Shown in pieces: positions 2,225-11,376 of a stretch of DNA of 55,939 bases. Source of the DNA: Deinococcales bacterium (lineage in GTDB: Bacteria; Deinococcota; Deinococci; Deinococcales; JAAFIG01); NCBI GenBank assembly GCA_043778225.1, contig JAYWGM010000002.1:1-55939 (forward strand), written 5' to 3'. The translations under genes and the position numbers were made by a program. Positions within the stretch are counted from its first letter, which is position 1. Each line of letters opens with the position of its first letter. A model generated the notes under the pieces. The model was not told where the DNA came from and did not search any database. It worked only from the letters and a program-made list of their open reading frames with translations.

Positions 2225-2838
2225 ATCATGGTCTCGAGTGGCTGCATGGCTCGCAAACGATAATAGGCTTCCATCGTGCGTGGATGCACAACCCGTCCTT
2301 TACTTTGCAGATAATGCACCTTACAAGTCAGGGCTTGGTGGTATGCGCGTTCCAAATCCAGAAAAGCCAATTCACGGATGTCATCGTTGACCCCACGTCC
2401 GGGTTCGGAGACATCGGCAACATAGACACAAATCGAAAGTAAATTGCCGCTCCGTGGTCCGGTCACGTGTTCTTCGACGGCATCGAGGACATCGCGGTCG
2501 GTCATTCCCCATTGCTCGAGAATCGCTCGCCCAGCCCGACCATGAACCGCCAACGGGTGGTCAGCATCCGCCAAGGTTTCAGGCGGGGCTAAACGCAATA
2601 ATTCCAAAGCTGGTAAATCCCGTGCAACATCGTGCAGAATTCCAGCCAAATACGCCTTATCGGAGTCAAGGCTGTGCGCCATCGCAATGTCTCGAGCCAG
2701 CGCCGCCACCCGTTCGATATGAGCAAAACGCTCTGGTTTAACCATGGCTCGGACTCGAGCCGCCCAAAAAGCCACTGGCGCAGACGGTGCTACTTGCAGA
2801 AGAATAGCCAACTCAGTCACTCCTTCCCCATTTCCCAA
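2209..2838 (-). CDS. yqeK: YqeK-family HD hydrolase (Ap4A symmetrical hydrolase-like)
   Basis: RFAHIERV, AGILHDVAR, HGRAG, VYVADVSEPGR motifs; exact start uncertain. Confidence 0.85.
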   Translation of the reverse strand: MGNGEGVTELAILLQVAPSAPVAFWAARVRAMVKPERFAHIERVAALARDIAMAHSLDSDKAYLAGILHDVARDLPALELLRLAPPETLADADHPLAVHGRAGRAILEQWGMTDRDVLDAVEEHVTGPRSGNLLSICVYVADVSEPGRGVNDDIRELAFLDLERAYHQALTCKVHYLQSKGRVVHPRTMEAYYRLRAMQPLETMIHQAI

Positions 2839-2854
2839 AGAAGATTCTACCGCG

Positions 2855-2893
2855 TCGTCAGCTTTTTGTCACCCCTTTGTCAGCCATTTGTGA
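2855..2893. promoter_or_regulatory. 11-bp-period direct repeats, OmpR/PhoB-box-like
   Basis: TCGTCA, TTGTCA, TTGTCA, TTGTGA starting at 2855, 2866, 2877, 2888. Confidence 0.45.
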
Positions 2894-3038
2894 AAAAAGC
2901 GCACAAGCCACTAGGATTGGTAGTTGTGCTTTGTAAAAACACAGTCAGTAAGGTAGAGCAGTAGGGCAGAACAACCTAAGCCACTGCTCGAGAAGGTAGT
3001 TGTCTGTAAACGCGGTGCAGCCCTGACTAAAAAAATAG

Positions 3039-4496
3039 CCTTTTCAGCTTCCAAGCTCGGTCTCGAGTGCGGTCAATCCAACCAGCACCCAAAGCCCAGC
3101 TTCCTCGAGTCTCCCAATTGTTAATCCAATTACGATTACAGCACCAAATCAGGTTGCCCCGCCGATAACTGGAACGAATTCTGCCTCGAGTGTGACTGCG
3201 CCTGTTGGGACTGTGCCTGTTGGTAATCCTGTGGCGGTTAAACCGCCCTCGAGTGTTAAGCCAGTCTCGAGTAGTGCGCCGCCAAATAGAATTATCAGAC
3301 CATTTGATGGTGTTGGCTCGAGTTCTTCGGCTGGTGTAGATTGTTTTAAGGCAGTGGCAAAGTCTCTTGATTCACAAGATGCCATTTCGGCGCAACAAGC
3401 GGAGCAACAAATGGGAAATCTTGAAGCCTGTGCGCGTAAAGAAGCTCAGAATGAACTTGAGAATCGTTATCGTCAACAAGGTTTGGATGCGGCGGCAGCA
3501 AAACTCCAAGCGCAAGCTGATTTGAATGCCCTTGACGGTTATTTCCAAGCGGGTCAATTTGAACCTCGAGACCGAATTCAATTCTTAACTGGATTGGCTG
3601 TTGGACTAGCCTCGAATCAGATTACAATTCCCGAATGGCGTAAAGAACTCGCAGCAATTTGTGGGATTCGGTCTCGAGCCAGTGCTGGTGCAATTGGAAC
3701 GTGCGATGAAGCGTTTAAGAACAATGGTTTTGGAGGTCGAGCAGCCTATATGGGTGGTGGTTGTCCAACCAATTCTGGAACGGCTTTGGCTTCAAACCCA
3801 TGTGACTCTAAAGATGCTCGTTTAGCCCCTAAAAATGCAACCCTAACCGATAGGGGTGATAGAAATCATCTTGGAGATTGGTTGTTTGGTAAGGGTGGGT
3901 ATGATATGTCAAGAAATAAGATTACAGGTTCAGGCGTTGGTGGTCAGTTGGACTCGAGAACTCAAGTTGGGATTAGTAAGAATGCACAACAAGCCTTTCA
4001 TGATGTCGCTATGGCATTTGATCGTTATTGCCAAAATCTAAGAAGCCCAAATCTGAATCCAGATAGACTTGATAGTATTTCATTAACAGGTCCCGGCGCA
4101 GAAGTTGCTTTTGGATATGGTGCAAAACTGACATCACAAATAACTGTTCCAATCAATAATTTGCCAAATACCAGTTTGAGCGTTACAGGAGCAGCAAACC
4201 CATTACAAGCAACTACCTCTATAGGTCTAAGTGGTGTTTCTGTGTCTCCACCTAGTATCAACTTCGGTCTTGGACTTGCACTTTATTATGGCGGATTCAC
4301 TGCAAATTTGTCTAATAACGGTAGTAATCAAATAAATTCAGGGGCGCTTAATGGGGGACTCAGTCTTGTTTACTTTCAAGGTGGTTTTTCCATAGGTACA
4401 AAAGGTGAATTCCAAGTCCAACTTGGTGCAGGACTTGGATTGGGAGCCGCAGGAAGTTTATCAATTACACCACCTAAAGATTGTAAAAAAGGATAA
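3039..4496 (+). CDS. Orphan polymorphic-toxin cassette 1 (P/S/T stalk + pre-toxin region + Gly-rich C-terminal domain)
   Basis: Frame opens after TAG at 3036 with no convincing RBS/start; begins inside the stalk repeat shared with 5145-5412 and 10311-10527; followed directly by a small AT-rich gene. Confidence 0.7.
   Translation, partial: PFQLPSSVSSAVNPTSTQSPASSSLPIVNPITITAPNQVAPPITGTNSASSVTAPVGTVPVGNPVAVKPPSSVKPVSSSAPPNRIIRPFDGVGSSSSAGVDCFKAVAKSLDSQDAISAQQAEQQMGNLEACARKEAQNELENRYRQQGLDAAAAKLQAQADLNALDGYFQAGQFEPRDRIQFLTGLAVGLASNQITIPEWRKELAAICGIRSRASAGAIGTCDEAFKNNGFGGRAAYMGGGCPTNSGTALASNPCDSKDARLAPKNATLTDRGDRNHLGDWLFGKGGYDMSRNKITGSGVGGQLDSRTQVGISKNAQQAFHDVAMAFDRYCQNLRSPNLNPDRLDSISLTGPGAEVAFGYGAKLTSQITVPINNLPNTSLSVTGAANPLQATTSIGLSGVSVSPPSINFGLGLALYYGGFTANLSNNGSNQINSGALNGGLSLVYFQGGFSIGTKGEFQVQLGAGLGLGAAGSLSITPPKDCKKG
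3049..3285 (+). repeat. Stalk homology block, copy A
   Basis: Encodes PSSVSSAVNPTSTQSPASSSLPIVNPITITAPNQVAPP..., near-identical DNA to copies B and C. Confidence 0.9.
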
Positions 4497-4498
4497 AT

Positions 4499-4957
4499 GT
4501 GATACTTCTCTATTCAATTTTGAGCTTTTTTCATACTGCTGTTTTGCTTTATATTTCTATCAGAGTGTTTCAAGGATTTAATGAGGTAATCGATACTAAT
4601 TTGTTTGGAATTGTTTTTATTACTGTTCTTTATATTTTTACATCTTTTGCTTTTCGATTTCAAATAGCAAAAGATTCACTATTTGTAACTTTTTATGGCA
4701 TTAGAATTAATCGCATAGATATAAAAAGTGTTAAAATTGTTAAATTTTCAAATGTGTTCGAGATATTGGCAAAAAATGTTTGGAAAACCAATATACCTTT
4801 TTTGTTGATACCATTAGTTTGCGTCTCAGTTGAATATAGAGGTGGGTTTTTTCAATATGTTTTATATTTCGGACGTTTTTTCAATTCAACTCAGGTAGCA
4901 GAATTCAATAAAATCATGCTGCAAAACGATAGTGGTGAGTCCAACCTAAAACGTTAA
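4499..4957 (+). CDS. Putative membrane immunity protein for cassette 1
   Basis: 152 aa, hydrophobic helices, very AT-rich, starts 2 nt after toxin stop. Confidence 0.65.
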   Translation: MILLYSILSFFHTAVLLYISIRVFQGFNEVIDTNLFGIVFITVLYIFTSFAFRFQIAKDSLFVTFYGIRINRIDIKSVKIVKFSNVFEILAKNVWKTNIPFLLIPLVCVSVEYRGGFFQYVLYFGRFFNSTQVAEFNKIMLQNDSGESNLKR

Positions 4958-5029
4958 TAACTAGCCTACCCTCAAGTAACCAAAATACCATAACAACCAA
5001 CCCAAGCCCAGCAATCTCGAGTCCAGCCG

Positions 5030-5130
5030 CAGAGTTTTATCTTTTGGGTTCAAAAATCACGGCGATGGTTTTCCGCGTACAAAGAATCTTCGTCCCTGAT
5101 GGTTCAGGGTTTTCAAAAGATAAAACCCTG
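5030..5130. mobile_element. 101-bp MITE with 17-bp terminal inverted repeats and 10-bp target duplication
   Basis: CAGAGTTTTATCTTTTG ... CAAAAGATAAAACCCTG (1 mismatch); AGTCCAGCCG duplicated at 5020-5029 and 5131-5140. Confidence 0.85.
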
Positions 5131-7074
5131 AGTCCAGCCGCTCAGCCCATAGCCCTACCAGCCCCAGTCAACACCTTGCCAAGCTCGGTCTCGAGTGCGG
5201 TCAATCCAACCAGTACCCAAAGCCCAGCTTCCTCGAGTCTCCCAATCATCAATCCAATAACGATTACCGCCCCGAATCAGGTAGCTCCGCCGATAACTGG
5301 AACGAATTCTGCCTCGAGTGTGGTTGCGCCTGTTGGGAGTGTGCCGGTTGGTAATCCTGTGGCGGTTAAACCACCTGCGAGTGCTGTGAAACCAGTCTCG
5401 AGTAGTGCGCCACCTCGAGTGATAAAAGTCTTTGATTTCTGGGGTCCTGAAGGCAATATCTGTTCGACAGTCAAAACAACGGGTGAACTCGAGTCTTGTA
5501 CTAAAGCCAGAGATTTGCAGGATGAACGAGAAAGATTAGAAGCACAAGCTCGAGCGGGTAATTCTGACGCTCAGAAGAAATTGGCAAATAATTTGATTAG
5601 CGAAGCTAAACTTTATGCCTATCATCGAGTCGGACCACAAGCTGCGGCTGATATTGAGGTTTACCGAGCTTATATTACTGAGAATTTTGATCCTGCTAGT
5701 CAAGTTGGAATGGCTGCTACGCTGAGTTTGTGGATGCAAACAGGAGCGCCATCTGAAATTCGTTGGCGATTACAACAAACTGTTCCCGAATTGCGTAAAT
5801 ACGTCAATCAAATGCGTGAAGTGCGAAAATATGATGCTGGTGTGCGAGCCGGAACAATTCGCTACGACCCAAATGATTATGGTCGCCTTAGAAGTGGCAT
5901 TGATGGAGGTAAAGCCCAACTTGCTTTTATGCTTGGAACTGGTCTGATTGATAATTGGGATGCTTTTGGTAATGTTGACCCGTTTAGCTGGCTTGATATA
6001 TTTGATATTATCGGGGTGTTTAGCGTGGTGTTTTCACTTGCAAAACTTGGTGGTAAAGCCTTGGCGAATGGTTTACGGAGTATCTTGCGTAATGGAGCTA
6101 AAGTGGGTGGTCGAGCCATTGGTGAAACGACTTTTGGTCGTGCAGTAGCAAAAGCTGAAGCTCGAGCAGCAAGGTGTTTTGGCAATAGTTTTACTGCAAA
6201 TACCAAAGTCTGGGTAGCTCGAGCCGCTAATGACCTGACTAGCAAAGCCAAAGTCACCCTCGAGAAAACCAAAACACTTGCAAAGACAGCCTTAACTGCG
6301 GTTGCTATCTCGAGTATTGGTGTGGGTACACAAGTCTTAGCGCATAACGAACAAACTAAACTCGAGACTCCTCAAATTGTTACAGCGACCCACGAACACA
6401 TTGACCCTATCATCGTGACCTTAAAACTCGAAACGAGTGATAAGAAACTCGAGACTGTTCAAACTACGCCTGAACACCCATTCTTTGCACTTCTCGAGCC
6501 AAGTAAAACGGCTAATGGTGTTTGGGTTAATGCTGGCGAACTCGAGAATGGAAATTGGCTTAAACGAGCTAATGGCGAAACTGGCATTGTTAGAAGCGTT
6601 AGTTTTGAAGTCAAGTCTCAGAAAATGTATAACTTAACGGTTGCTCGAGACCACACTTACTTTGTGGGGGATGGGCAGTGGTTGGTACATAATTGCCCCG
6701 AGTTCTATCACGGAACAAGTGTACAGTCAGCAGGTAGACTACTCAGAGGGGCTGAACTCGATACAGCCGTAGCAAGTGCATTAAAAGCTGATGGTGCGGC
6801 TGGTTTTTACCTTGGAACAAGCTCTGATTCTGCGTGGTTTTATTATGCTGCTCGACGCGACGGAACTGTTCTGACATATAACCTTAGTGACGAAGCCTAT
6901 GCCGCTCTAACAGCATCTGGTGCGAGGCTTCAAAATATACCTGTAGGCGCAAGGTCTGCACCCGGAGCAAGTCTTGGTCAAGAATTTTTCATTCCACCAG
7001 AAGCATTTGCGCTTTTTAATCAGCTCGTTAAGTCTGGACAGATTACGATACGAGCAGCACCTTTGCCCAAATAG
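5044..7074 (+). CDS. Polymorphic-toxin cassette 2: stalk + pre-toxin region + Hint domain + ADP-ribosyltransferase-like toxin
   Basis: Hint motifs CFGNSFTANTKV, TTPEHPF, MYNLTVARDHTYFVG...WLVHN|C; C-terminal FYHGT / GFYL / QEF. Confidence 0.85.
   Translation: MGSKITAMVFRVQRIFVPDGSGFSKDKTLSPAAQPIALPAPVNTLPSSVSSAVNPTSTQSPASSSLPIINPITITAPNQVAPPITGTNSASSVVAPVGSVPVGNPVAVKPPASAVKPVSSSAPPRVIKVFDFWGPEGNICSTVKTTGELESCTKARDLQDERERLEAQARAGNSDAQKKLANNLISEAKLYAYHRVGPQAAADIEVYRAYITENFDPASQVGMAATLSLWMQTGAPSEIRWRLQQTVPELRKYVNQMREVRKYDAGVRAGTIRYDPNDYGRLRSGIDGGKAQLAFMLGTGLIDNWDAFGNVDPFSWLDIFDIIGVFSVVFSLAKLGGKALANGLRSILRNGAKVGGRAIGETTFGRAVAKAEARAARCFGNSFTANTKVWVARAANDLTSKAKVTLEKTKTLAKTALTAVAISSIGVGTQVLAHNEQTKLETPQIVTATHEHIDPIIVTLKLETSDKKLETVQTTPEHPFFALLEPSKTANGVWVNAGELENGNWLKRANGETGIVRSVSFEVKSQKMYNLTVARDHTYFVGDGQWLVHNCPEFYHGTSVQSAGRLLRGAELDTAVASALKADGAAGFYLGTSSDSAWFYYAARRDGTVLTYNLSDEAYAALTASGARLQNIPVGARSAPGASLGQEFFIPPEAFALFNQLVKSGQITIRAAPLPK
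5145..5412 (+). repeat. Stalk homology block, copy B
   Basis: QPIALPAPVNTLPSSVSSAVNPTSTQSP...VKPVSSSAPP. Confidence 0.9.
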
Positions 7075-7091
7075 CGAGTAGGAGTATTTCT

Positions 7092-7532
7092 GTGAATGAA
7101 TTAACCAAAATAGATGTAAATGATGTAAGAGCGAAGTATTTGTCCAATCCATCATTCGTTTTTCGTAGAGGCATCCCTAATCTATTTGAACTTTCGATGG
7201 CAATAGCAGAAGGGGCTTTTTATCTTGGATGTTCAAAAGTCGAAATTGAAGTATTTAAGGATTGGCAGATAGTTAAGGGAAATCACGATTGGATTTGCGA
7301 AAATCCAGTAAAATCTGAGATTTTCTTCTTCGACCACTTAGTACCCTTTCCAGAATTAGACATTAATTCTGCACATTGGGAATTTTACTTATCTGTATAC
7401 TGTGTATGTATTTTGACGGCTAAGGATGAAATAATAACGGTAATTAAGGAAAATGAGTATATTGCCCTAGAGATAAATCAGGCACTAGAAAGTGTTCCAA
7501 TTGGCTGGCGTGCTGTAGCATTTAAGCTCTAA
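7092..7532 (+). CDS. Putative immunity protein for cassette 2
   Basis: 146 aa, AGGAG RBS, AT-rich, directly downstream of toxin. Confidence 0.7.
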   Translation: MNELTKIDVNDVRAKYLSNPSFVFRRGIPNLFELSMAIAEGAFYLGCSKVEIEVFKDWQIVKGNHDWICENPVKSEIFFFDHLVPFPELDINSAHWEFYLSVYCVCILTAKDEIITVIKENEYIALEINQALESVPIGWRAVAFKL

Positions 7533-7570
7533 ATTTTTTATCTTGAGTTTAATTATGATTAAGTTACTGT

Positions 7571-8367
7571 ATGACCTAGCCAGCAAAGCCAAAGCCACCC
7601 TCGAGAAAACCAAGACTATTGCTAAAACCGCTCTGGCTGCGGTCGCTATCTCGAGTATTGCAGTGGGTACGCAAGTCCTAGCGCATAACGAACAAACCAA
7701 ACTCGAGAGTCCACAAACTGTTACGGCTACCATTAACCATACCGACCCGATTACTGTAAAACTTGTCCTCGAGACGAACACTGGCAAACTCGAGACCATA
7801 GAAGCTACTCCAGAACACCCGTTTTATGCTCTGCTCGAGCCTAAGAAGAATGCAAGCGGAATTTGGGTTAATGCTGGGGAATTACAACCCAATAATTGGT
7901 TGCGACGTGCCAATGGTGAAACTGGGATTGTTAAAAGCCTCGAGTGGTTGACTGGCACGAAGCGGATGTATAATTTGAGTGTTGCAAAAGACAATACTTT
8001 CTTCGTAGGGAATGGGCAATGGTTGGTTCACAATCAGAACCAACCAAGGTATGAAGGTCCAAAACCAACATTTTCTGTAAACGGCGCTCATGTACCCGGT
8101 CAGCCTGGATTTCGTCCGAATAAAACAATACAGCCTGCTGATGCTGCGGAAGTTTTTCGGACTGCTATTCCTGATAGCGCTACAAATCCACGGGTTTGGT
8201 GGGGAGTAAATGCTAATGGTCAGGTCTATAGGTTTAGTGTTGATAACAATGGAGTGGCTCACTTTAGTGGAATAGATGGTGTCGGTGATGGAACAAGAAA
8301 TATGTCATCTTACGCAGCAGACAGACTTCAAGAAAGGTTTCCAAATGTTGAGATTCACTGTAGATAA
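7571..8367 (+). CDS. Orphan cassette 3: N-terminally truncated Hint domain + small toxin domain
   Basis: 7571-8034 homologous to 6230-6693, ending WLVHN; lacks the Hint N-terminal block; distinct 110-aa C-terminus (…VWWG…YRFS…HFSG). Confidence 0.8.
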
Positions 8368-8878
8368 ATTAGCCAAGCATTTTGAGGTGCATTTTGAAAT
8401 CGAAACCATTCATGAAACGTGGGTTTATGGAAAATTCTTTTTTCAAATTGGCGAAAATATTATTGGCAATGAGGAAGAATCTGTTGCTCTCAATATTGCA
8501 TTTGGTTGGATAGAACAGTATCTAAAAACCAATCAATTTGAAAACGATTCCAGAATTACTGAACTTTCTACAGAAGAAGTATTTGCAACATTTTACGACC
8601 CCTTTTTTATCTATAAAGTTACAAGTTTACAACCCAAATTCCCGATAATTTCTCACCCTAATGATTATCGTTTTTACGTCTCACATCTTGGTGAATCATC
8701 TTTTAATAATTGGGCTATTTTATTTTTTGATAATACGGGTTTTCAAAGAATCCTTTGGGCTACGTTAGATTCGAGAAGTATTTCAGAGGCTTTTTTAGAA
8801 GTGAATACTTTTCAAAATGCCTTACAAAATGCTTTGAAAAAGTATCATGAAGCATTATTGCGGGTAAGACCCCCATAA
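8345..8878 (+). CDS. Immunity protein, Imm42-like
   Basis: FEVHFEI...WVYGKFFFQIG..IIG...SSFNNWAILF...RILW pattern recalled for Imm42; overlaps toxin 3' end; start inferred. Confidence 0.6.
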   Translation: MLRFTVDKLAKHFEVHFEIETIHETWVYGKFFFQIGENIIGNEEESVALNIAFGWIEQYLKTNQFENDSRITELSTEEVFATFYDPFFIYKVTSLQPKFPIISHPNDYRFYVSHLGESSFNNWAILFFDNTGFQRILWATLDSRSISEAFLEVNTFQNALQNALKKYHEALLRVRPP

Positions 8879-8907
8879 ATTTACTGCGAAACTTTTGTTT
8901 CAACTTG

Positions 8908-8931
8908 AAACCCCGCCATTTCTGACGGGGT
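8908..8931 (-). terminator. Stem-loop/terminator of the small minus-strand gene
   Basis: Minus-strand RNA ACCCCGUCA-GAAA-UGGCGGGGU-UU. Confidence 0.55.
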
Positions 8932-8954
8932 GTAGCTTCTCGAGGTTCAAATGG

Positions 8955-9122
8955 TTACTTGAGGATGCTCACGATAGCGGCGATTAAACCGCTTATCAGT
9001 GTCACAATGGCTGCCCAGAATTGCGTGATTTGCGTTGCAGTTTTACGTGCTTGGCGTTGACGCTTGGCTGGAACTTGCGGTTTCAACCGTTTTTTGGTAC
9101 GCTTTTTGTGTCGGATATACAA
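8955..9122 (-). CDS. Small basic protein with C-terminal TM helix, type I toxin-like
   Basis: LYIRHKKRTKKRLKPQVPAKRQRQARKTATQITQFWAAIVTLISGLIAAIVSILK*; AAAGGAGGTG SD paired with upstream ACCTCC; start codon unclear. Confidence 0.55.
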   Translation of the reverse strand: MYIRHKKRTKKRLKPQVPAKRQRQARKTATQITQFWAAIVTLISGLIAAIVSILK

Positions 9123-9651
9123 CACCTCCTTTAACGGAGGTAAATTACCCGCACCCTCTTGAGACAGGGTGCGGGTTTCTCCGTTTTACGGGTTTGCCCA
9201 CATTCCCTGTGGATCAAAACCATCTGACCCAGAGAAGCTACGCAAAAAACATAACACGCTCGAGATACTTTGTGAAGTATCGCAAAACAGGATTCTCGAG
9301 TCGCCCCAACGACCGGACAACCCGACTACTCGAGTACCTACACCCTCGATGCTTACGGCAGACGATTAGCCACCACAGGCGGCAAGTACAACCAATTCAC
9401 CAAGCGCTATAACCCCGACGGACAAACCGCAGAATTTAACCGCGCCCCAAAAGGTGCAGATGGCGGCAGTGGCTACATTAACAGCATCGAATGGTACAAC
9501 ACCTATATTCTGGCATTTAGATACGACCCACAAGGACAACAAATCCTAAGCGCAGATTCTGGTTTTACCGATTACAGTGGAACAGGACCACACTTTGCAG
9601 TCAATCGTCAAACCTACGCCACCTACTCGAGCGACGGAGAAGTGCAAATGA

Positions 9652-9773
9652 TACCAAATTTCGGAAGTTCCTAAGAACTTCCCGACCAAAGGGAGTGAAA
9701 AAAAGACCGTCTTTGACGGATACGGCGTATTTTGCGCTTTTGCGGAATACAGAGTATCTATGTAAAGACGGTA
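9652..9773. mobile_element. 122-bp modular small repeat (SNR/MITE-like) with TGA target duplication
   Basis: TGA|TACCAAATT-hairpin-CCCGACCAAAGGGAGT-long hairpin-CGGTA|TGA; related element at 55843. Confidence 0.75.
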
Positions 9774-10310
9774 TGATTAGCGCTCGAGACGGTGTGGTGG
9801 CAAATAGTCGAGCTTGTAGCGTGGCGATTTTCTGGTGTATTTTGCCTTACGATGTGGTCACAAATACATGGGATAGCCCAGCCAATAATGAAGACAACGA
9901 ACAACAACCTGCAAAATCCTATGCTCGAGTCTATGACCGCACCTTTGGTCTGGCAGATGGTCTTAAATCCAAATCATGGGCAGTCCAACAACCCTTTGAC
10001 CTCATCCCAACCCAAAACGGACAACTCGCCCTCGAGACACCCCAAACTGCTCAATCTACTTCATTAGGTCTAAACCCAGTAGCGGTAGCGGCACCAAACA
10101 CAGTCTCGAGTCCACCAGTCAATCCAGTCACAGTTACCCCACCAGTCATCACTGCCCCAACTGGCACAAACTCGAGTCCAGCCCCGCAAACCACCCCAGC
10201 CCCAAAAGCCACCCCGCAAGCCGCAAGTACCCCAGTCTCGAGTAATCCAGTCTCGAGTCCAACAGTGACTGCCCCACCAATTGGTAGTACCACCCCAGCC
10301 CCAGTCTCGA

Positions 10311-10527
10311 GCAACCCAAGCCCAGCCCCAACCTTGAGCCAACCAATTGCCCTTCCAGCCCCTGTCAACACCTTGCCAAGTACCATCTCGAGTGCTGTCA
10401 ACCCAACCAGTACCCAAAGCCCAGCATCCTCGAGTCTCCCAATCATCAATCCAATAACGATTACCGCACCGAATCAGGTTGCCCCGCCTGTTGTTGGCTC
10501 GAGTAGTGCTGTGCCTGCGCCTGTAGG
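10311..10527 (+). repeat. Stalk homology block, copy C
   Basis: NPSPAPTLSQPIALPAPVNTLPSTISSAVNPTSTQSP...NQVAPP; truncated next to livF. Confidence 0.9.
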
Positions 10528-10578
10528 TATGCTTAAAGATACCTATGGGAGTGCTAGGTCAGCACTCCCATACTCACA

Positions 10579-11376
10579 TTAATCTTCGCCAAGGTACTTT
10601 TTGCGGACAGCTTCGTTGTTTTTAAGGTCGTTGCCCGTGCCTTGCAGCACGATTTCGCCGGTTTGCAGCACGTAGCCACGGTGCGAGATGCCCAGTGCCA
10701 TCAGGGCGTTTTGCTCGACCAACAGAATGGTTTTGCCAGCTTTATTAAGCGCCACAACGCTGTCAAAAATCGTTTCGACAAATAACGGGCTTAAACCCAT
10801 GCTTGGTTCGTCCAAAAGAATTAACTCGGGGTCAATCATCAAGGCTCGAGCAAAGGCTAACATTTGTTGCTCGCCACCCGATAATGTGCCGCCCATTTGG
10901 CTTTGGCGTTCGCGCAGACGAGGAAAAATTTCAAAACCCTGCTGCATTCTTTGCTCAATCACTTTCTTGTCTTGCACCGTAAACGCACCCAACTCGAGGT
11001 TTTCTTTAACGCTTAAACGCGGGAAAATCCTACGTCCTTCGGGAACATGAGCCAAGCCCATCTTCACAATATCGTGTGGCGCAGTTGTGTTGAGGTTCTG
11101 ACCTTTGTATTTAACAAAGCCTTGCTTGGGTGGCTTGAGCATTGAAATGGTACGGAGTGTGGTGGTTTTTCCTGCGCCATTGCCACCAATTAAGCAGACA
11201 ATTTCGCCTTTGGCAACCGTAAACGATAAGCCTTTGAGGGCGTGAATCTGTCCGTAATAGGTGTGTAAATCAGAAATCTCGAGCATCAATTCGCTGCGAG
11301 TTTCGGGCTTTGATTCGCCTCGAGTTTCGGGTTTTGATTCGCCTCGAGTTTCGGGTTTCAAATTTGAATCGCTCAT
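10579..11376 (-). CDS. livF: Branched-chain amino acid ABC ATPase
   Basis: GGNGAGKTT, HVPEGRRIF, LSGGEQQM, LLDEPSMGL. Confidence 0.95.
   Translation of the reverse strand: MSDSNLKPETRGESKPETRGESKPETRSELMLEISDLHTYYGQIHALKGLSFTVAKGEIVCLIGGNGAGKTTTLRTISMLKPPKQGFVKYKGQNLNTTAPHDIVKMGLAHVPEGRRIFPRLSVKENLELGAFTVQDKKVIEQRMQQGFEIFPRLRERQSQMGGTLSGGEQQMLAFARALMIDPELILLDEPSMGLSPLFVETIFDSVVALNKAGKTILLVEQNALMALGISHRGYVLQTGEIVLQGTGNDLKNNEAVRKKYLGED
11296..11358. repeat. 24-bp coding tandem repeat (KPETRGES) at LivF N-terminus
   Basis: GATTCGCCTCGAGTTTCGGGTTTT unit, about 2.5 copies. Confidence 0.85.

Follow-up and report, generated by a model that had tools for sequence, protein, structure and literature searches.

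In the genome assembly of a Deinococcales bacterium (GCA_043778225.1), contig JAYWGM010000002.1 carries an inserted island at positions 2922-10578 of the 55,939-nt stretch analysed here (positions 1 to 55,939, hereafter the window), which consists of three orphan toxin/immunity-like cassettes and a core-end fragment split by a miniature inverted-repeat transposable element (MITE). The island is almost certainly an orphan array of a family of giant proteins built around a shell of YD repeats, whose full-length members (heads, 2,500-3,900 aa) are present in relatives. From their sequences, these proteins very probably have an antibacterial toxin/immunity function and are likely to be exported through a secretin encoded at the same loci; that the toxin is carried outside the shell is a view towards which we incline with more reserve. 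As a whole, we moderately favour a reading of the island as a headless array of an antibacterial YD-shell toxin family that would be secretin-exported and hold its toxin on a tether outside the shell. In the accepted picture, a bacterial YD-shell toxin is a cage that its DPxG self-protease seals and opens; the present family keeps the shell and drops the motif.

Three orphan cassettes in an inserted island

The borders of the island are set by comparison with relatives. Likeness to the DNA of the same-genus genome G003 ends at 2921 and restarts at 10579, and yqeK (an HD hydrolase gene) and livF are adjacent in three of the five same-genus loci fetched (G003, G005 and G007), livF not being shown in the other two. 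An insertion site common to G001 was considered and rejected; the yqeK contig of that genome ends near the insertion point, not in stalk sequence.

Within the island, each of three open frames is followed by a small gene (Table 1), as a sequence-only reading of this DNA had proposed when it described three toxin/immunity pairs in tandem. Its claims that cassettes 1 and 2 open in the same stalk of about 240 bp and share a diverged helical region behind it hold as well: 218 of 239 aligned bases (91%) are identical between 3045-3283 and 5172-5414, and the helical regions, at 24% identity, reach a local score of 67, where the best of 1000 shuffles scored 56, a likeness that is real but weak. A third stalk copy ends the core-end fragment, where 10340-10488 matches 5143-5291 at 134 of 149 bases; exact repeats measure only 36-41 bp. 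The YD fragment is followed by stalk as had been stated, but it lies downstream of the cassettes, has no toxin and is split by the MITE.

The stalk had also been named as the homology block of the array, which is right for cassettes 1 and 2 but overlooks a second block. PT-HINT is found in cassettes 2 and 3 (63 and 54 bits, cut-off 27.7), and their Hint DNA (6230-6693 and 7571-8034) is 73% identical. Cassette 3 begins within Hint, and there are therefore two homology blocks, stalk and Hint. Across ten cassettes, the conserved stalk and Hint alternate with a variable helical region and a variable tip, Hint being 72-87% identical and the tips, with the exception of one orthologous pair, 14-27%; this pattern fits two exchange points. 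The structure prediction for cassette 2 can be trusted in the helical bundle and in Hint, but not in the tip. The Hint domains of the host genus have an insert of about 30 aa near their N-terminus (6220-6320 in the window), and cassette 3 begins in this insert.

The three tips look toxin-like by association. Tip 1 is a Gly-rich domain outside known families that comes with a two-helix membrane partner, and the pair is conserved in G001, where the cassette on contig C760 shares 431 of 481 residues with cassette 1 and the partner shares 122 of 151 with immunity gene 1. A search of the Atlas with this tip gave only scores below 0.9 and no assignment. Tip 2 shares 42% identity with the C-terminal end of P0086, a canonical Rhs fragment, and shows the H, D, GFY, W and R residues listed as the signature of Tox-ART-HYD2 (PMC3482391; this and the other articles cited by PMC number are drawn on for particular sections). 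Its Atlas neighbours are ADP-ribosyltransferase (ART) families (Tox-ART-HYD1/TreTu, 0.92-0.93), which serve as a lead only, and tip 2 is likely to be of the ADP-ribosyltransferase type. Five other proteins share 58-67% identity with tip 3, and four of these are Rhs-type with PxxxxDPxG. When tips 2 and 3 and the core-end profile were searched against PDB sequences, only chance or repeat matches, or none, came back, and a complex prediction for tip 2 with immunity gene 2 scored 0.06 against a mark of 0.32, which we count neither way.

Among the small genes, the third encodes a member of a known immunity family (Imm42); the immunity role of genes 1 and 2 is assigned by position alone, no Pfam family being above cut-off for gene 1 and two outside homologs being found for gene 2. 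Purine-rich sites are retained before the starts of genes 1 and 2 and none were seen for the cassettes, the same contrast that has been reported of orphan modules (PMC3150448).

No head, operon or second secretin was found in the bacterium's own assembly, which is 89% complete. Because this assembly is without head or operon, the island here is most likely an immunity bank or a relic. The headless state could instead be an artefact, with the head and operon left unassembled or the order of the array scrambled by stalk repeats. The incompleteness of the assembly would allow this, unitigs break at stalks, and a second headless array (contig C94, 1-8200) opens at the very start of its contig, with a possible head upstream. 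We nevertheless regard an artefact as unlikely, since both outer junctions (2500-3080 and 10438-10668) are spanned by single contigs of sequencing run X1, the exact repeats are short, and no piece of a head or operon gene was found in the assembly. The junctions are also backed by contigs of run X2, and contig breaks fall at repeats only; X1 and X2 come from one study, possibly of the source sample, and their support is not independent. Some contigs of runs X3 and X4 lead from one copy of the stalk into another; they were considered as rearrangements of this locus and rejected, since they fit homology in related strains. The C94 array holds a Gly-rich tip with membrane partner, a stalk cassette resembling the tip of a G013 head, a DUF6932/helix-turn-helix (HTH) pair, two genes of the PD-(D/E)XK transposase family, an IS3-like element and stalk remnants. 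A similar DUF6932 and HTH pair, toxin-antitoxin-like, lies between cassettes both there (L056:1149-2080) and in G013 (L027:13159-14042).

Full-length heads in relatives

That a full-length Rhs-like head would exist elsewhere or be lost had been predicted, and a search of the genome and its relatives bore this out: G003 has a head of 3646 aa, and G013 has two on a single contig (2805 and 3580 aa), with orphan cassettes beginning in the stalk behind both. The order in a head is a signal-like leader, the YD shell, a TFSLADG...LEAP core end, a low-complexity linker, the helical region, an optional Hint and a variable toxin. In the G003 head, leader, YD repeats, stalk and helical region are followed by a weak PT-TG match, PT-HINT and a weak WHH nuclease match, and an SMI1/KNR4 gene comes next. 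G001 has one core piece and five more cassette contigs, all broken in the stalk. Orphan cassettes with homology to the head were seen in 5 of 10 loci read, and also in G001 and the window. Three features of polymorphic toxins were found: a constant delivery region with variable C-terminal domains, downstream immunity genes and orphan cassettes.

A profile of the core end gave 72 cluster matches and was positive in 26 of 364 Deinococcota genomes, spread over three families. Fifteen of the 72 (P0059, P0062 and P0064-P0076) were dropped as repeat-protein noise, with at most 13 bits or none on rescoring (up to 14 in one listing); we take them to be WD40 proteins. Stalk matches in G020, G036 and G008 (E ~1e-4) were first set aside as low-complexity and then retested, that in G008 being unsupported. 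The named carriers, a minority of the matching clusters, all belong to the Deinococcota: D. peraridilitoris, D. roseus, D. betulae, D. gobiensis, D. wulumuqiensis, Deinococcus sp. Arct2-2 and Calidithermus terrae. A basic-then-hydrophobic leader was seen at 18 of 23 N-termini, judged by hydropathy alone. A 53-kb plasmid of D. gobiensis (NC_017793.1) consists mostly of two heads, each apparently split in two frames, and the operon described below.

The YD repeats of the heads match PF05593/TIGR01643, and some heads have inserted PA14, CBM60 and FG-GAP (carbohydrate-binding, Ig-like) domains. Mucin-like stalks are typical of adhesins. With these inserts and stalks, and with biofilm metagenomes as the source runs, the heads might be adhesins of the cell surface that, in the manner of repurposed teneurins, serve biofilm or kin recognition, their tips being no weapons. 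This seems very unlikely to us. The tips belong to nuclease or ART types that canonical Rhs toxins also have, with nuclease-type matches (Colicin D, EndoU, RNase, DUF2380) above cut-off in 4 of 28 members scanned; known immunity families stand downstream (Imm42 in the window, SMI1/KNR4 in G003); and orphan arrays are a hallmark of toxins (PMC3150448).

Departure from the canonical Rhs core

The family differs from canonical Rhs proteins at the core end. The Rhs-associated core (TIGR03696) has no match in the window proteins or in the whole assembly of this bacterium, nor in any of 5 heads, 28 further members and 5 carrier genomes. PxxxxDPxG, which the sequence-only reading had not seen before the toxin, occurs in none of 40 family tails and in all five canonical Rhs controls, the 40 being profile matches of at least 40 bits that reach the core end and have a tail of at least 250 aa. 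The family core terminates instead in D-x-TFSLADG...PF...LEAP. Behind it follows a tail of 579 aa at the median (306-768; n=40), against 173-208 aa in the controls, and cargo below 25 kDa is what fits the standard Rhs cavity (PMC8636562). The median Pro/Ser/Thr fraction is 0.36 in the linker and 0.25 in the shell.

Despite this, the YD shell is predicted to have the fold of the Rhs cocoon. A model of the G018 shell (last 1192 residues, 44 rows) reached a predicted local distance difference test (pLDDT) score of 79.5, being unreliable past the core end, and its best matches are Rhs cocoons (Foldseek E 1.6e-31, TM 0.43-0.47, 12-13% identity). No PAAR match was found in the heads scanned. The core that defines canonical Rhs proteins is not recovered from this family, and its cassette logic is as in Rhs and contact-dependent inhibition (CDI) loci.

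A secretin operon beside the heads

The most distinctive feature of these loci, which had been overlooked along with the Hint block, the MITE and the C94 array in an otherwise well-supported interpretation, is an operon beside the heads that encodes a Big_7 Ig lipoprotein, an S8 protease (subtilase) and a short secretin. The catalytic triad of the protease is intact in both copies checked. The secretin, of about 400-470 aa with PF00263 and PF03958, is of a type found in 26 of 364 genomes, no match falling between E 1e-76 and the 1e-55 limit. Compared with the G003 copy, the linked secretins show 40-54% identity, and compared with the housekeeping copy of the present genome, 28%; four near-complete genomes each have one other secretin and one per operon.

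Core end and short secretin occur together in 21 genomes and lie at most 12 kb apart in 18 of them. The operon was present in all 10 loci read, which had been chosen as already linked, and the head is divergent from it in 8. Adjacency of toxin and secretin recurs in three families with little else conserved around. The same gene order is found on the D. wulumuqiensis plasmid pDrdI, in a RefSeq annotation that names no system.

Several observations weigh against parts of the reading that we favour. None of the three window tips has a Pfam match. The linker is Pro/Ser/Thr-rich in many members, and several are acidic or at a fraction of about 0.2. At the core end, a conserved Arg (in 34 of 44) and two conserved Asp (in 36 and 38 of 44) could form a divergent self-protease; about 1,900 residues lie ahead of the core end in G018, and the family shell exceeds the standard Rhs shell in length and may therefore enclose a larger cavity. 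Together with the predicted cocoon fold, these residues and this length would suit an ordinary Rhs protein in disguise, in which the R...D-x-TFSLADG core end cuts itself as an aspartyl protease, an enlarged shell cages the tail, and the stalk serves only as spacer and recombination handle. We consider such a protein unlikely: TIGR03696 and PxxxxDPxG are missing, when 41 family core ends were compared by profile with five canonical cores, the probability came out below 5% (the control alignment being thin), tails of about 60 kDa surpass known Rhs cargo, and PT-HINT would provide release in 12 of the 28 members scanned.

With regard to the operon, the counts of secretin and toxin co-occurrence are descriptive, kin not being independent, and the linkage shows co-inheritance rather than export. 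Five genomes are toxin-positive and secretin-negative (G000, which is the present genome, G001, G007, G157 and G251), and five have the secretin without a core-end match; G006 and G155 have their second heads on other contigs, and loci occur on plasmids. No inner-membrane genes of a type II secretion system were recognised in the three-gene operon, a genome-wide search for them not having been made. For their exit, the toxins might use Sec together with the housekeeping secretin or vesicles, with the linked secretin serving the subtilase or lipoprotein and the operon merely travelling on the same island; PilQ, for its part, is not needed by Neisseria MafB (PMC4287609). This explanation, too, strikes us as rather improbable, given the recurrent adjacency in three families with little else conserved, the divergent orientation in most loci read, and the fact that the exceptions are mostly fragmented assemblies or relics.

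Proposed mechanism and comparison with known systems

In the reading that we favour, of a secretin-exported toxin tethered outside its shell, the leader would take the head across the inner membrane by Sec. The shell would then fold, and the head would cross the outer membrane via the linked short secretin, with the Ig lipoprotein as a pilotin-like helper. The toxin module would stay outside the shell on its low-complexity tether, and the tip would be freed by self-cleavage of Hint where Hint is present or, where it is not, by a cut within the stalk or behind it; that this cut is made by the operon subtilase is a doubtful proposal. Tips would be exchanged by recombination at the stalk or Hint. 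More tentatively, the three-gene kit may constitute a new export route, with the shell of 270-420 kDa as a surface pedestal, and not a cage, for the tethered toxin and release via Hint or the kit protease. If so, release would have moved from a lost aspartyl protease in cis to Hint, or to the kit protease in trans.

The family resembles canonical Rhs/WapA proteins (PMC3150448, PMC8636562) in its YD repeats, predicted cocoon, Rhs-type tips, immunity genes and orphan arrays. In contrast to these, it has no Rhs-associated core or PxxxxDPxG, its tail of 300-770 aa comprises linker, helical region and optional Hint, its swap points are the stalk and Hint, and it has a secretin operon of its own and no marker of a type VI secretion system. 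Bacterial teneurin-like proteins share the Sec leader, adhesion inserts, YD shell and polymorphic toxin end, but they keep DPxG and tips of about 15 kDa and are listed, in the sections drawn on, for six phyla that do not include the Deinococcota (PMC13018210); the present family lacks the bipartite DPxG, and no Pfam match to NHL was found in the heads scanned, the N-terminal part not having been folded. In metazoan teneurins the motif is missing and the tail lies outside, which is the arrangement that we propose here (PMC13018210). A shell kept without the motif and with a tail too long for the standard cage is how the animal proteins are arranged, and the family would allow the change from cage to display platform to be tested in bacteria.

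Like MafB and MafA of Neisseria (PMC4287609, PMC3482391), the family combines a signal peptide, an optional intein-like domain, orphan cassettes and the gene of a partner lipoprotein. MafB, however, has no YD shell and is exported independently of PilQ (PMC4287609), whereas the present family has a second secretin at the locus; DUF1020, the N-terminal domain of MafB, has no match in the heads scanned. In D. radiodurans, of the same phylum, the secretin DR_0774 is likewise accompanied by a belt of the Ig-fold lipoprotein DR_1364, but DR_0774 is a 740-aa housekeeping channel to which the linked secretins are additional (PMC10828601); neither 'Rhs' nor 'toxin' occurs in the parts of that article drawn on. 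The family also recalls CdiAB in its giant toxin, dedicated outer-membrane exporter alongside and orphan tips, with a secretin as exporter and a YD shell as passenger, where the CdiAB passenger is a filament. CdiB is an Omp85 protein.

No account of the family or the operon was found in the literature covered, which left largely outside the subscription journals and supplements. The supplements of PMC3482391 may list some family proteins as generic RHS/HINT toxins; a secretin dedicated to one polymorphic toxin locus is absent from the export routes tabulated there, and the word 'secretin' does not occur in the portions drawn on. The system would give the Deinococcota a contact weapon, the type VI marker VipB/TssC being found in none of the five genomes checked. 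As it is present in cultured Deinococcus species, partly on plasmids, direct tests of its export, processing and killing are feasible.

Other features of the island and its surroundings

Table 1. Features of the island, in window coordinates
Feature	Position	Strand	Basis and remarks
Inserted island	2922..10578		yqeK/livF adjacency in relatives; break in G003 DNA likeness
Orphan cassette 1	3039..4496	+	Stalk 3045-3283, helical region, Gly-rich beta-type C-terminal domain; without Hint; no clear start signal seen
Likely immunity gene 1	4499..4957	+	Two N-terminal hydrophobic segments; purine-rich site before start
Orphan cassette 2	4939..7074	+	Stalk 5143-5414, helical bundle, PT-HINT 6172-6693 (ends HNC), tip 6694-7071
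Likely immunity gene 2	7092..7532	+	Position and AGGAG site; outside known families
Orphan cassette 3	7519..8367	+	Begins inside Hint (homology from 7571), tip 8035-8364
Imm42 immunity protein	8345..8878	+	PF15593, 49.9 bits (cut-off 27.2)
56-aa basic open reading frame (ORF), one hydrophobic segment	8955..9125	-	Passenger
Core-end fragment, piece 1 (last YD strands of shell)	9276..9651	+	75% identical to G001:C148 core residues 1236-1357
MITE, 122 bp	9652..9773		TACC...GGTA ends, TGA (3-bp) target duplication
Core-end fragment, piece 2	9774..10582	+	TFGLADG...LETP motif and stalk; stops without toxin

The core-end profile matches piece 1 of the fragment with E 2.4e-37. The MITE that separates the two pieces has 21 blast matches in the genome, 9 of them at contig ends, and 4 full copies with TNA duplications; it is missing from one contig of run X3, which joins 9652 to 9782. 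A second subtype is about 78% alike, and the mobiliser of the MITE family might be an element of the IS5 group.

The small ORF between the third immunity gene and the fragment lies between hairpins (8955-9185) and is type I toxin-like, by look only. DNA resembling it follows cassettes in G001 (contig C331, 82%), and similar DNA of high depth occurs in contigs of other organisms in runs X2 and X3. Beside yqeK, on the minus strand, is a gene conserved in the genus for a 574-aa FAD-linked oxidase (382-2106), which by look we take to resemble alkyl-dihydroxyacetone phosphate synthase. On the other side of the island, the 5' end of livF holds three 24-bp tandem copies (11289-11358) that encode KPETRGES repeats.

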